Shown here piece by piece: positions 9,001-15,000 of a DNA stretch of 64,000 nucleotides. Source of the DNA: Escherichia coli (GTDB taxonomy: Bacteria; Pseudomonadota; Gammaproteobacteria; Enterobacterales; Enterobacteriaceae). The DNA is taken from the NCBI RefSeq assembly GCF_016026235.1, contig NZ_CP065613.1, one strand, 5' to 3'. Position numbers: made by a program. How positions within the stretch are numbered: the first letter of the stretch is position 1; each line of letters begins with the position of its first letter.

Positions 9001-12000
9001 TGCTTTTTCTGCTCTCGCGTAGGTAAATTCTGGGGATGATTGAACAATCTCACCTAATAATTCACTGGCACGATTCAATGATTTGTCATCGCCATGCAGT
9101 AAATAATCATGAGCCTGATAAAAATTAGTTAATAACGCACCACGATGAGGCAAAATTTGCTGGAGCGTCTCCTGCATTCGTTGTGGCCACGGTTGGTTTA
9201 ACGCTTTTGATAAACTCTCCAGTAAATCATTTTGAATCGCCAGCTGATTACCGTTAGTGATGACATAACGTTTATCCAGCATGGTTGAACCATCTGCATT
9301 GTCTACCAATTTTATCGACATAAAGCATTGTTGAGCACGGTATTGGCGCTGATTAACAAAGGCAATAGATAATGTTTTACCGGAACTGCTCGGTTCATCA
9401 ATGTTGTAGTTGATTTTGTCATGCACCATAAAGGTGGAGAAGGTGTTAAGTGATGTCGCCACCAAATCACCCACGCCTATCGCGTAAGAGAGCTGATACG
9501 GGGAACTCCACTGAGGGATCCCCAGAAAATTTAGTAAACCATTATCATATTGGTATACCGTTGCTGTAGAACTTTCAGCCCTGCGTCAAGTGACAGTGTG
9601 TTTAGTATGAGTGGAGAATGTCGAATCACATTCTCCGCCAGTTTTAATAACGAGATGACTCGCCTGTGCTTCACTGTATTTGCCTGATATTTATGATGTA
9701 TCCCTTTGTTTTCCAGGCTGAAACCGCTTAACCACATAATGATACTGGCTAATGTTGCGATCAGACTCAATACCGTGACCCGCCCGGATGAATGACTGGC
9801 ACCAAACCGTAGTCCAAATCCCCAGCGAGGATTTTTTCATCCCTGAAATTTTGCTCAATTTGCATTCTACGGCTGTATAATTTCATTACCTGTTTTGGCG
9901 AGAACTCAGTACTGTTTGTGAAAATAAACCATGGTGATTTCCCGGCAGTACGAGCTTTAGCCGTCACCGATGGTCTGGTTGCTCTTTCCTTCGAGCGTTT
10001 AAATCTACGACCTTTAGGCTTACTTTTATAAAGATAAAAATGCCCTTCATGTTGTGCATTTTTATCTCGACCCAGCAGGCCTTCACCTAAATAAATTGCT
10101 GTCGTTGATGCTTTTGTGCCTGAGTCCGACACCTTTTCCCAGCCATTACCAACATTGTAATAATGATTGCCCAGTACCCGGCAAATATAGGTCCAGCCAC
10201 GGGAGCGGAGCTGTTGGAACCATCGCCCCTGAAAACCGGCATCTGTAATAACAATGACATCAGTCCCGGGGGAAAAGCACTCAGCAAGCGATTCCAGAAA
10301 ACGCTCATGTACATCTGCATTCGCTGTCTGTGATGATGGAACGACACAACTCATCAACGGTAAAGAACGCCCGTCACATGCCAGGCTTGCCCGCAAAAGC
10401 TGAAAACGAGAGGCATGATAAGCACTCCAGTCAATGAGTATCACAACACGAGACATTCCCCGCGTAATCTTTTGGGTAATTCGCTGAAAAATGGTGGAAA
10501 CCTCATTTTGCAAATGTCGATTCCCCAACAGTCGATCCACCCGCTTTATTTTGTTTTTAACTGATGCCGTACCGGTTAAATGACGCCCGATACTGGTAAG
10601 TGTGAGGGAAGCGCCATTTATTACAGCATTAGTTGCGTCAATCAGTGATTTTTGACGGTAAAGATGCAAAGGGGCCAGTATGTTGTTAAGGAAATTTTGG
10701 CATAATGAACGTGCAGGCATAGTGGTGATCTCCTTGAAATTGTTAGCACAATCAATTAGATCACATCTCACTATGCCTGTCTTGTTTTCTGGGGATTCCT
10801 CAGGGGAACTCCAGCTGTTACAACTTTTATTTACCATATTAATGTCAATATCGCGTGGATTGAGCAAAATACGCGATTTGCTCATCGGAAGACGTGTATC
10901 AAGACTTGAAAACGCTACCAGTGCTACACAGATACCTAAGGACAACAGGAAAAAAAACCATACCCAAAAGGTAGTGAATCGTTTGCTTTTAACTGGGGAT
11001 TGTTCAGGTGGCGTTGCGGTGTTTTGAATGTTAAGGCTGTGGGAGGGAGAATCTGTGGCAGGAACCGCCTCTGGTATAGGGGGAGGCGAAGATAGCATTA
11101 TTTCCTCTCCCTCTTCTTCGCTGTACCAGATAACCGGCACCATTAATTTATAGCCGCGCTTTGGTACAGTAGCGATATAGACAGGACTATCTTCATCATT
11201 ATCTTTTAATGAATTACGTAGTTCTGAGATACTCTGCGTCACAACGTGATTGGTGACAATACTTCTCTTCCAGACATTATCGATAAGTTCATCCCTGCTA
11301 AGTACTTCGCCACTGTGTTGAGCAAAGAAAACCAGAAGATCGATTAATCTCGGCTCAAGGGTAAGTTGACGCCCATTGCGGCTAATTTGGTTTATGGACG
11401 GAGTAACAAGCCATTCGCCAACGCGAACTACAGGTTGTTGCATAATAGAAACTCATTCGAAAAGGGAATGATGCAATGATAATTGCCACAACCTATTTTT
11501 ACCATCTATAGATGGGTTTATTTACATATTATTGGTGAATGCAAGACGTTATTTTTACCAGCCATAAACTTCTTGATTACATGGTATTACGAAAGGATTT
11601 TACTGAGAACCAGAAGTAATATTCCTTACCATCAAAATTCATCATCTTTGCCAAAGAAAAATGTTCAGAAAATAATCCATGGAAAATTGTCCGGAGCGCT
11701 TACTATTTTAATGGATTGTTAGTCTTTGCATGAGCAAGGGGACTGATACATTTCTCTTTGTTCTCATTCAGAAAATCTCATCAGTCGCCGTTCAGACCGG
11801 TGTTGTGCTTTATGGATGCGTTACGCTCCTGATGACGTCATTTGACGTTCAACAGCATCACGGGGTCGCACGACATTTCACGTCAGTTAGTGCTATAGCT
11901 CAGGAACAAATTTTCCCGAATTGGGATATGCCCGCAAATTGCTGGTGATGTGGGGAGAATCTGGTTGAGTTCGGTAGAATTGATTTGGCGGCAGAACGCT

Positions 12001-15000
12001 TAAATCGTGGCGTCCTGAAACGAAAAACGGACCTCCGTGGAGGTCCGTTTATATGAATTTGGTGCCCGGACTCGGAATCGAACCAAGGACACGGGGATTT
12101 TCAATCCCCTGCTCTACCGACTGAGCTATCCGGGCAACGGGGCGCATTAAACCGTAATCTGCACATCTCGTCAACCTAATTTCAGTAAAAGCGATTCAAC
12201 TGCTTAAGATTGCGGCAAATCGCTTCTTTTCTGTGTTTCTGTCAGGTCAATGCGCCACCCTGGCGGCAGCGGGCGAAGCGCAGGATATCTTCCGCCAGCC
12301 GATGTGCAGTGTCGACATCCGCCTGGCTACGATTCACCAGCATCCGGCTCAGGCATCCTTCCAGCACCAGTTCCATCTGCTTTGCTACCATCGCCGGATC
12401 GTCAACTTCCAGCGTGGTTAACAGTTCGTGGGTGAAATCGTAGGCCGCGCTTTTTTGCTGATCGGCCAGTTGATGAATAGGGTGGCCAGGATCGGGATAA
12501 AACGTACAGGCAGCGATAAATAGACAGCCCGGATAGCGGTTGTTTTTAACGCACTCCGATAACGCCTGATAACGTGCCAGCAGCTTTTGTTCGGCGGTTT
12601 GCGTTTCGTCCAGCATCAGCTGACGACGCCAGACATCTATCTGTTGGCTAAGATAACGCAGCGCATCGTAGAGGATTGCCTCTTTGTCTGGCCAGAAGCG
12701 GCGCAGCTCGTCCAGTGGATAATCCACACGTTCAGCAACCATCTCCAGCGTGGTGTTGGCAATCCCTTGTAATTCTAATAATTTCAGGGCTTCTCCCAGT
12801 ACATCTTCACGTTGCACGCTATTTTCCTCCGTCTTTCCCACTGCAAGTGTCGTTCACGGTTGGCGATCGCGCAAATGTGCGCTGAAGGTTTCAGCATCCA
12901 TAAAGCCCGTGACGCGTGCTTGTGGATGCTCCTGGCCTTGTCCGTCAAAAAAGAGAATTGTCGGTAGGCCAAGGACATTAAGATGCTTTAACAGCGCCAC
13001 ATCTTGTGCGTCGTTGGCCGTGACGTTGGCCTGAAGTAAGACCGTGTCTGCTAACGCTTTTTGCACCTGCGGGTCGCTGAAGGTGTATTTCTCAAACTCT
13101 TTACAGGCGACGCACCAGTCGGCATAAAGATCTAACATCACCGATTTGCCTTTGGCTTCAACGAGCGCCTGATTTAACTCATCTACCGTTTTGATTTGTG
13201 TAAAGTTGAGATGCGTCTGAGTTTGCGCGGTATGCGTCGCACCAAATGCCCAATCCTGAAGTGGGCGCACGCTAACCAATGCCGCTGCCAGCAGGATTAT
13301 TTGCATCACGCGCATCCAGCCGCGTTTGGCCTGTAGGCTGGTGATAAAGGCCCAGCCAAAGAATGCGACACCCAGCGCCGACCACAAGCGTAATCCCCAT
13401 ATATCACCAATCACTCGCTCCAGCAGGAAGACCGGCAGTGCGAGGATCACAAAACCAAACGCGGTTTTGACTTGTTCCATCCACGGGCCGCTTTTCGGCA
13501 GCAAGCGGTTACCAAAGACGGTAATTAGCATCAGCGGCAGGCCCATGCCCAACGCATAGAGATAAAGCGTGCCGCCGCCCAGCCACATGTTCCCGCTTTG
13601 GGCGATATACAGCAGAATCGCGCTAAGCGGTGCGGTGGTGCATGGTGAACAGATCAGTCCGGCAATCGCCCCCATAATAAACACTCCGCCGGGTGAGCCG
13701 CCCTGTTGGCGATTGCTCATCAGCGTGAGGCGCGTTTGCAGCGAGGAGGGGAGTTGTAGAGTAAACAAGCCAAACATTGACATCGCCAGCAAGGTAAAGA
13801 CGATGGCGAGGCCAATGAGCACGTATGGGTGCTGTAGCGCCGCCTGGAACTGTAACCCTGCGGCGGCAACTACCAGACCCAGCGCCGTGTAAGTCAGTGC
13901 CATCCCCTGCACATAAATAAAGGTCAGCAACAATGCTCTGGCAGTGGAGAGCCGCTGTTTACCACCCAGCACGATGCCAGAAATCAGTGGGTACATTGGC
14001 AGCACGCATGGCGTAAAGGCGATACCAATACCGATCAACAACGCCCAGAGCGCGGAAAAGGGCAATTGCGCGGTGGGCTGCTCTTGCTGCGGAACAGACA
14101 CAGGCTGTGGCGCTGCGTTGTTGGCGACCACTTCGCTTAACGGAACGGTTTTGGTTTCTGGCGGATAACAGAAACCGGCATCAGCACAGCCCTGGTAGGT
14201 GACAGTTAACGTCGCTCCCGCACTCGCCTGGTTGATGGTTACGGGAAGCGTCAGCCGATCGCGGTAAATCTCGCTTTTGCCGTAAAACTCATCTTCATGC
14301 CAGACGCCTTGCGGAAGCTGCACGTCGGCAATTTTCGCGTGTTCCGGCGTAATGCGGATCTGTTTACGGTAGAGGTAGTAACCGTCTTTGATCTGCCAGG
14401 TCAGATTAAGGTCATGTTGGTTTTGCTGAAAATCAAAAGTAAAGGCTTGATCCGCGGGGACAAATTGTGAACGTCCCGGCGCGTCGAATAATCCGGCAAA
14501 AACGGAAGTGCTGCAAAGTAGCAGGATCAGCGTAAAGATGCGTTGAGCCATGAGAGGTAATCTGTGTCTCCGTGTGTAACAGGTAAAACCAGAAGTTCCG
14601 GGGTTTGATATGGATGATGAGACTTCAGGCATTCCAGCAGTGCCTGCTGGTGAGATACGGTAGTTTTTAAAATCATCTGCACTTCGTATTCTTGCTCCAG
14701 CTTACCTTCCCAGTAATAGAGAGAGGTAGCGCCGGGGATCAAGGTCGCGCAGGCCGCCAGTTTTTCCGCCAGCACTTTGGCAGCTAAATCCTGGGCTGTC
14801 GCTTCATCTGGTGCCGTACATAGCACCACGACAGACGCGGTATTCGAACTTTTTTCATCAAGCATAAACACCTCGCAAGAACAGATGGAACCGCAAGAGA
14901 GAGGTCACTATACAACGTACGGGGGAAGGATGTTAGTCGGCGGGAAAGAAAGCGGGGCGTGAACGCCCCGCGATTGATCATTACAGCATGAAGCTACCCA

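Follow-up and report, generated by a model that had tools for sequence, protein, structure and literature searches.

The pheU locus is a textbook hotspot for the integration of genomic islands, and a genome in which little DNA separates this tRNA gene from its neighbour raises the question of whether the site is truly empty. The question is addressed here for a stretch of 64,000 nucleotides of an Escherichia coli genome (contig NZ_CP065613.1), hereafter the window. A preliminary description took the site to be unoccupied, with a short non-coding gap whose state would help to narrow the strain type. Part of this stands, as there is no present-day island and the junction is of the K-12 type. The site is, however, not clean and non-coding, because an integrase relic lies inside it: the 360 bp that follow the tRNA are very probably what is left of a very old P4-like integrative element.

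The tRNA-Phe (GAA) gene occupies positions 12060-12135 on the minus strand (ARAGORN; Rfam tRNA, 68.3 bits) and has the position of K-12 pheU (b4134). According to the ORF calls, a cadC-type reading frame starts at 11443 on the same strand, leaving a gap of 616 bp (11444-12059) that is equal in length to the K-12 MG1655 spacer; gap and flanks together are 99.3% identical to MG1655 over 1001 aligned bp. Further in, cadC is broken by an IS4-family element, its start being unaffected. The gap had been called AT-rich, which holds for its overall GC content (0.401 vs 0.508 for the whole window) but truly applies only to the cadC-proximal 256 bp (0.32-0.33), the tRNA-proximal 360 bp standing at 0.43-0.47. 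Its description as short and devoid of an integrase-length ORF or a repeat of the tRNA 3′ end was confirmed: the ORF calls give none longer than 79 aa in 11444-12059, and, with up to 3 mismatches allowed, the last 23 nt of pheU have no second copy anywhere in the 64-kb window. The suggested search for a degenerate copy of the pheU end also came out empty, since the best same-orientation candidates in 1-12059 carry 8-10 mismatches, the level of shuffled sequence, and nothing above chance was found when the lysU-yjdJ space (560-1404) was searched for a degenerate far-end repeat. With a permissive threshold, Rfam returned the tRNA as the sole match in 9000-14000, and hence no known small RNA in the gap.

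Two small ORFs in the gap had been regarded as chance frames, and comparison bears this out, as stops or frameshifts disrupt both in K-12 or in other Escherichia species. The 79-aa ORF (11483-11722, plus strand) is intact neither in K-12 nor in the other Escherichia compared, while the 72-aa ORF (11730-11948, plus strand), which runs antisense to the integrase relic, survives whole in E. coli and E. sp. E1V33 alone, a frameshift or truncation having broken it in E. whittamii, MOD1-EC7003 and SCPM-O-B-8794; neither is annotated by PGAP or in K-12. A site without a long ORF, an attachment repeat or conserved small ORFs could be a clean one, never occupied or fully restored, with nothing but chance sequence between pheU and cadC, and in a comparative study the pheU entry of K-12, W and B reads 'no mobile element' (PMC3032704). 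Such a reading is nevertheless very improbable, given that window positions 12059-11700 are colinear with the left ends of pheU/pheV islands found today, with the middle of the integrase skipped, and that both the K-12 annotation and PGAP place a pseudogene there. The preliminary description had itself proposed a translated comparison for integrase remnants and held that a fragment would overturn its reading; the fragment is present, tblastn with an intact pheV-island integrase against the gap giving E = 2e-10 over codons 359-420.

Read outwards from the tRNA, the scar retains the order of an island left end, all of it on the minus strand. The last 23 nt of pheU (12060-12082, minus strand) are the attachment core of present-day pheU islands and are intact here, so that the site is still usable for attachment. 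Directly 3′ of the tRNA lies a 114-bp segment (segment A, 11946-12059), the left end of the old island. At occupied pheV (ETEC1722) and pheU (O103:H2 12009) sites, the stretch that separates tRNA-Phe from the intact integrase gene matches it with 93-96% identity. Segment A contains a terminator-like hairpin of 11 pairs followed by a T run (12025-12050, minus strand), also detected as an inverted repeat by self-BLAST and present as an identical copy at the left end of modern islands; from its sequence, this hairpin is the probable terminator of pheU. The adjoining segment B (11865-11945) comprises the integrase 5′ untranslated region, the start and the first ~8-11 codons, and aligns in order with modern islands, with deletions of 12 and 22 bp and 78% identity when gaps are left out. 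Its start codon has changed from ATG to ATA (11896-11894), and the first codons read I-A-L-T-D-V-K-C-R-A-T; the ATG is retained in E. whittamii, MOD1-EC7003 and SCPM-O-B-8794. Segment C (11700-11864) is a relic of the integrase C terminus, codons ~358-421 and the stop, and is the pseudogene yjdQ (b4654). Its blastn alignment leads to nt 1073-1266 of the intact integrase gene, with 82-84% identity without gaps; an origin from a quite different integrase lineage, suggested by BLAST values of 67-69%, was dropped because those values counted gap columns.

About 1.04 kb is thus missing from the middle of the integrase (roughly codons 9-12 to 357), and the HxxR motif (GHGFR region) falls within the deleted part. 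Segment C is moreover frameshifted and has an internal stop, and deletions of 13-16 bp have removed the catalytic tyrosine motif ('VRAAYIH' region) from the E. coli relic. On these sequence grounds, the relic is a dead pseudogene and not a working tyrosine recombinase. Pfam gives no match for its conceptual translation at E <= 1, the fragment being too short and damaged, and the identification therefore builds on pairwise in-order alignment together with existing annotation. The relic is indeed already known, being annotated in K-12 and in RefSeq. K-12 yjdQ (4362191-4362353, minus strand) corresponds to window positions 11700-11862 (minus strand), the same locus and the same bases, and PGAP calls a pseudogene at 11703-11862, 'tyrosine-type recombinase/integrase, frameshifted, missing N-terminus', a call repeated in every genome inspected. 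The yjdQ annotation covers the C-terminal 160 bp only, to which the relic as delimited here adds 11865-12059, i.e., the 114-bp left end, the integrase 5′ region and the first codons. For yjdQ the K-12 record carries no product text; the pseudogene has been described as a P4-like integrase remnant. No mention of yjdQ was found in the literature collection searched.

The closest relatives of the relic are the intP4-type integrases of present-day pheV and pheU islands (GI-pheV, LEE- and pap-carrying islands), which have the same position, orientation and left-end sequence. Islands at the two genes have been described as having one shared integrase type and 19-23 bp repeats of the tRNA end (PMC7686366; PMC11537424). 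Compared with them, the relic is without the central 1.04 kb, the start codon, the HxxR and tyrosine motifs, the cargo and the far-end repeat. Like an island, it places an integrase, as a fragment only, directly after a tRNA gene and on the same strand; unlike these islands, which vary between strains, it is fixed in the genus, and the variable presence between close strains that marks an island is not seen. The reference intact integrase, which carries the domains Arm-DNA-bind_3 (PF13356), Phage_int_M (PF22022) and Phage_integrase (PF00589), shares 54.9% identity with phage P4 Int across 97% of its length, as well as the three-domain layout. Phage P4 and the intact relatives of the relic both integrate at the 3′ end of a tRNA gene, but the P4 target is tRNA-Leu instead of tRNA-Phe, and the window holds a dead fragment only.

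How old is the scar? One could propose that the lineage of this very strain once had a modern pheU island, since decayed or deleted, for instance through IS-driven genome reduction, which would make the site informative about the strain; IS insertions do occur nearby (cadC::IS), and IS1-mediated deletions beside the relic are found in other strains (M719). This is hardly credible in the face of the distribution of the relic. At least 5218 of the 5426 complete E. coli genomes have the whole 616 bp in one piece, with an identity of no less than 95.8%; the layout and deletion junction recur in K-12, O157:H7 and O103:H2; and the same integrase deletion junction is shared by four other Escherichia lineages, namely E. 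sp. E1V33, E. whittamii, E. sp. MOD1-EC7003 and strain SCPM-O-B-8794. The relic is therefore ancient and carries no strain-type signal, and the suggestion that the state of the site narrows the strain type fails. What is informative about the strain in this neighbourhood is that no modern island is present and that cadC carries an IS insertion.

Occupancy by modern islands is superimposed on this old state. The junction between pheU and the relic is uninterrupted in 3725 of the 5426 complete E. coli genomes (~69%) and interrupted in the other ~31%, where the sampled cases have a modern island inserted ahead of the relic, directly after pheU. Such an island carries at its far end a 22-23 nt copy of the pheU 3′ end, which abuts the relic; in O103:H2 12009, for example, a 46.7-kb island with an intact integrase lies between pheU and a 22-nt repeat adjoining the relic. 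Most genomes also contain extra partial copies of the sequence searched for, which are the left ends of pheV islands. That the second copy might be the pheV paralogue's own flank was rejected, as K-12 pheV shares only 8 bp beyond the tRNA.

The conservation of the left-end segment is uneven with respect to the rest. Segment A is 91-94% identical among Escherichia species, compared with 70-93% for the remaining relic, and it is also closer to modern islands (93-96%) than the other parts are (78-84%). Simple neutral decay does not explain this conservation, and selection on the terminator or gene conversion with incoming islands must be invoked as candidate causes. Alternatively, segment A might be the native flank of pheU, taken up by islands through imprecise excision, as could be expected of the best conserved part of the region and one that contains the probable terminator of the gene. 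This seems a poor prospect: in the relic and in modern islands alike, segment A runs unbroken into the integrase 5′ region and first codons, and it travels with islands into pheV, while the unoccupied pheV of K-12 is without it.

Beyond the integrase stop, an AT-rich spacer (segment D, 11513-11699; GC 0.33) extends to the conserved leader of cadC and probably holds the cadC promoter. At the tool threshold, a promoter scan gave a single sigma-70-like site, which lies on the plus strand and is within chance expectation; the cadC strand has none. This spacer is single copy in E. coli, with matches at 5302 places in 5272 genomes, and is common to all Escherichia lineages with the relic; E. albertii and other genera do not have it upstream of cadC. 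The cadC-proximal leader and ribosome-binding region (segment E, 11444-11512, minus strand) belongs to the cad block and is 96-100% conserved in Escherichia; E. albertii homology upstream of cadC starts at this segment, and that of Klebsiella, Raoultella and Enterobacter 40-55 bp before the ATG.

The direct passage from the integrase stop and its 3′ flank into cadC would be accounted for if the cadC-cadB-cadA-dtpD-lysU block had come to pheU with the ancient island, either carried in or captured there, as cargo that is still present. In favour of this, cadC lies beside a tRNA-Phe gene only in Escherichia, and cadC and its upstream region are AT-rich. Klebsiella, Raoultella, Buttiauxella, Serratia, Hafnia, Edwardsiella and others retain the block, with other genes flanking it on either side, and in those genera no tRNA or integrase lies within 10 kb of it, although pheU could be further upstream than the 10-kb flanks compared. 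In addition, the only large deletion in the integrase is internal, so that nothing demonstrates a loss of downstream cargo. The proposal is nonetheless unlikely, for there is no attachment repeat past lysU or elsewhere in 1-12059, the GC content of cadB and cadA is near average, and CadA and CadB share 91-94% identity with their Klebsiella counterparts, which fits vertical descent with rearrangement. Homologues of the spacer downstream of modern integrases were sought and not found, and in E. albertii other, island-like DNA abuts cadC at -69. That junction was considered as the right end of the old island and rejected, as no att-like sequence is present there.

Taken together, these data favour the scar of an old P4-like element at an otherwise K-12-type site. 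The element would have integrated at the 3′ end of pheU, bringing with it the present downstream bases and the hairpin. The integrase would then have lost ~1.04 kb from its middle, and the start codon and tyrosine motif later, leaving the non-functional pseudogene yjdQ; the remainder of the old element has vanished or changed beyond recognition. What is observed is the homology, the sharing of the junction and the pattern of occupancy; the order of events and the role of the hairpin as a terminator are inferred from these sequences. No far-end repeat that would mark the original extent of the old element was found in the window.

For biology at large the finding has little import, since the island-free state is common and the scar already annotated. 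In practice, 'empty' pheU sites of E. coli are not clean, and a script that takes integrase fragments as signs of island remnants will report one at this site in almost all E. coli genomes. The relic may also not be inert. Because it duplicates the left end of incoming islands, modern pheU islands are flanked by direct repeats of ~137 bp, i.e., the 23-nt core plus segment A, and not by repeats of 23 bp; in O103:H2 12009 the two flanking repeats are 93.4% identical and have a 50-bp exact run in common. It is tentatively suggested that such repeats make RecA-dependent loss or conversion possible; that the cad-dtpD-lysU block came to pheU as cargo of the old element is remoter still. Through the repeats, pheU islands could be lost precisely, in a RecA-dependent and integrase-independent manner, and conversion of the relic by islands, or the reverse, would account for segment A having stayed so much closer to modern islands than the rest of the relic. 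As a modest hypothesis, the long flanking repeats could thus affect the stability of pheU islands.

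The tRNA-Phe(GAA) gene pheU (12060-12135, minus strand; ARAGORN and Rfam) and the start of the cadC-type open reading frame (ORF) called at 11443 on the same strand enclose a gap of 616 bp (11444-12059). The gene order, dcuA-cutA-dsbD-dicD-pheU followed by cadC-cadB-cadA-dtpD-lysU, is that of E. coli K-12, to which the window is 99.3% identical over 1001 bp with equal spacer length. The preliminary description of this gap as short, AT-rich and devoid of an ORF of integrase length is accurate: its GC content is 0.401 versus 0.508 for the window, and its longest ORFs, both on the plus strand, encode 79 and 72 aa. 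The low GC is due to the cadC-proximal 256 bp (0.32-0.33), the tRNA-proximal 360 bp having 0.43-0.47. The two small ORFs, which are annotated neither by PGAP nor in K-12, are indeed chance frames; 11483-11722 is broken in K-12 and in every other sequence compared, and 11730-11948, antisense to the integrase relic, is intact in only one of the four other Escherichia lineages. As also described, the last 23 nt of pheU have no second copy in the 64-kb window (up to 3 mismatches). For a degenerate repeat in the same orientation, from position 1 to the tRNA, the best candidates have 8-10 mismatches (10-12 within the gap), which is the range of shuffled sequence; the attachment-site repeat is absent. 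A genomic SELEX study reported, for the spacer between cadC and pheU, a peak of RpoH-holoenzyme binding (map position 4360430 in that paper, intensity 4.0; PMC5493296), whose centre would lie near the relic of the integrase 5′ region if the paper uses older K-12 coordinates. Elsewhere in the window, and unrelated to pheU, three tandem tRNA-Gly(GCC) genes (42575-42873, plus strand) are arranged as in the K-12 glyV-glyX-glyY cluster.

The search for integrase remnants was positive. When the 616 bp were compared by megablast with 5426 complete E. coli genomes, nearly every record among the matches listed had an annotated "tyrosine-type recombinase/integrase" within the aligned stretch. The PGAP annotation has a 160-bp pseudogene here, described as "frameshifted; incomplete; missing N-terminus" and corresponding to 11703-11862 (minus strand), and the K-12 MG1655 pseudogene yjdQ (b4654, 4362191-4362353) corresponds to 11700-11862 on the same strand. 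Two intact references were used, the occupied pheV site of strain ETEC1722, in which 197 bp separate tRNA-Phe from a 421-aa integrase, and the occupied pheU site of O103:H2 strain 12009. The reference integrase carries the Arm-DNA-bind_3, Phage_int_M and Phage_integrase domains, and the label "P4-like" is justified because the protein shares 54.9% identity with phage P4 Int over 97% of its length.

Read in the direction from pheU to cadC, the window matches both references in order as three minus-strand segments, so that an integrative element is the source of 360 of the 616 bp. Segment A (12059-11946, 114 bp) is 93-96% identical to the island left end and includes a hairpin of 11 pairs with a T run (12050-12025, minus strand), probably the pheU terminator. 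Segment B (11945-11865, 78% identity) covers the integrase 5′ untranslated region, which has suffered two deletions of 12 and 22 bp, the start codon (11896-11894), which has become ATA, and about 8-11 codons, the relic reading I-A-L-T-D-V-K-C-R-A-T for the intact M-A-L-T-D-A-K-I-R-A-A. The alignment then jumps over about 1.04 kb of the integrase gene to segment C (11864-11700), the last ~64 codons and stop (82-84% identity without gaps; tblastn E = 2e-10), damaged by a frameshift, an internal stop and several short deletions; the "VRAAYIH" tyrosine motif has been lost to one of the deletions. The annotated yjdQ is thus only the last part of the relic. A Pfam search with the relic translation gave no match, the fragment being too short; the relic retains no catalytic motif and cannot be functional.

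Beyond the tRNA, no more than 8 bp of the unoccupied K-12 pheV site match the window, while occupied pheV sites carry segment A between tRNA and integrase, and segment A continues unbroken into the integrase 5′ region in the relic and in modern islands alike. The simplest reading of these sequences is that the old element supplied what now lies downstream of pheU, including the terminator. Within the spacer, segment A also changes the most slowly (91-94% identity between Escherichia lineages, versus 70-93% for segments B to the AT-rich segment D), and modern islands resemble it more than they do segments B and C. Its conservation could reflect selection on the terminator or gene conversion with incoming islands.

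With a query spanning the tRNA-relic boundary (11650-12300), the junction was found intact in 3725 of the 5426 genomes. In most of the remaining genomes sampled, the best match is query 1-433, comprising the relic and precisely the terminal 23 nt of the tRNA, the latter being the repeat at the far end of an inserted island. O103:H2 12009 has a 46.7-kb island bounded on one side by pheU and on the other by a 22-nt repeat abutting the relic. It encodes an intact integrase and an Ag43-type adhesin and carries efa1/lifA, nleB, nleE and espL2. Because the relic repeats the island left end, direct repeats of 137 bp, each made up of the core and segment A, lie on either side of this island (93.4% identical, with a 50-bp exact run). 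Published surveys define the pheU site as yjdC-cadC, assign pheV and pheU islands one integrase type and give 19-23 bp repeats for pheV islands (PMC7686366, PMC11537424), and a comparative study records pheU as free of mobile elements in K-12, W and B (PMC3032704). The intact junction places the window in the majority, island-free class. "Unoccupied" is right in the usual sense of the word, yet the site holds a decayed island remnant, the outcome named beforehand as refuting an empty site; the observation is confirmed and its interpretation partly supported. Separately, the ETEC1722 pheV island (5843-8917 of the extracted locus) consists of an intact integrase followed by two IS1 copies, a truncated yghU and little more, and is a present-day reduction nearly to the integrase, intermediate towards the pheU state.

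The spacer was aligned from the window, K-12, O103:H2, Escherichia sp. E1V33, E. whittamii, Escherichia sp. MOD1-EC7003 and the divergent strain SCPM-O-B-8794 (CadC 91% identical). The fusion of the first integrase codons to the C-terminal part is identical in all of them, which implies a single internal deletion older than their split. Less damaged versions keep the ATG start; the tyrosine-motif bases lost by E. coli are kept in E. whittamii and MOD1-EC7003 and more diverged in SCPM-O-B-8794, which keeps the 22 bp of 5′ region lost by E. coli. In E. coli, further small lesions were added.

Segment D (11699-11513; GC 0.33) is single-copy in E. coli and common to the Escherichia lineages with the relic. 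Upstream of cadC, nothing corresponding to it occurs in E. albertii, whose homology begins at -69, or in other genera, whose homology begins 40-55 bp ahead of the ATG. A perfect 14-bp palindrome, CCATCTATAGATGG (11502-11515, 59-72 bp upstream of the cadC start), sits at the exact start of the E. albertii homology and just before that of the other genera; it may serve as a regulator site or mark an old recombination junction. In E. albertii NBRC 107761 (1-4194), whose contig ends 4.2 kb upstream of cadC, no integrase relic precedes cadC; the DNA there is island-like and encodes a protein of 612 aa that weakly resembles a cassette-chromosome replicative helicase, which suggests that a different mobile element abuts cadC. 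In a CadC scan (one genome per species, 10-kb flanks), cadC adjoins tRNA-Phe in Escherichia only, and cadCBA-dtpD(-lysU) is kept in Klebsiella, Raoultella, Buttiauxella, Pseudescherichia, Serratia, Hafnia, Edwardsiella and others, where the flanking genes differ on both sides and neither a tRNA nor an integrase occurs within 10 kb. This distribution is compatible with, though no proof of, a cad block that reached pheU with the old element; against the idea stand the absence of a far-end repeat, the ordinary GC of cadA and cadB, their high similarity to Klebsiella and the 10-kb span of the flanks compared. In strain M719, an IS1 copy (5288-6054) lies at the equivalent of ~11650, from which point the genome lacks all sequence as far as yjdJ, cadCBA-dtpD-lysU included, but retains the relic and pheU; the entire cad block was lost in an IS1-associated deletion.

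In the window, cadC itself (8602-11443, minus strand) is interrupted near codon 210 by a ~1.3-kb IS4-family element (~9514-10802; named ISEc60 family by PGAP in matching genomes) with a target duplication of up to 15 bp, and in the long ORF 9767-11443 the N-terminus of CadC is joined to the transposase frame; cadB and cadA appear intact. The insertion was found in none of the 5426 E. coli genomes. The element is multicopy in EIEC-type strains such as CFSAN029787 and FDAARGOS_943 (36 places), the latter with its own cadC frameshifted. Loss of cadC is the classic adaptive lesion of Shigella and EIEC, so it is this insertion, and not the pheU spacer, that is informative on strain type.

The state of the pheU site had been expected to help narrow strain type; instead, the whole 616 bp is contiguous in 5218 of the 5426 genomes at 95.8% identity or more, and the relic is a fixed feature of the genus, of no use for strain typing. 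The relic was already known as yjdQ/b4654 and as a PGAP pseudogene. What is added is incremental, namely its full extent, a junction common across Escherichia and the long repeats that flank modern islands because of it.
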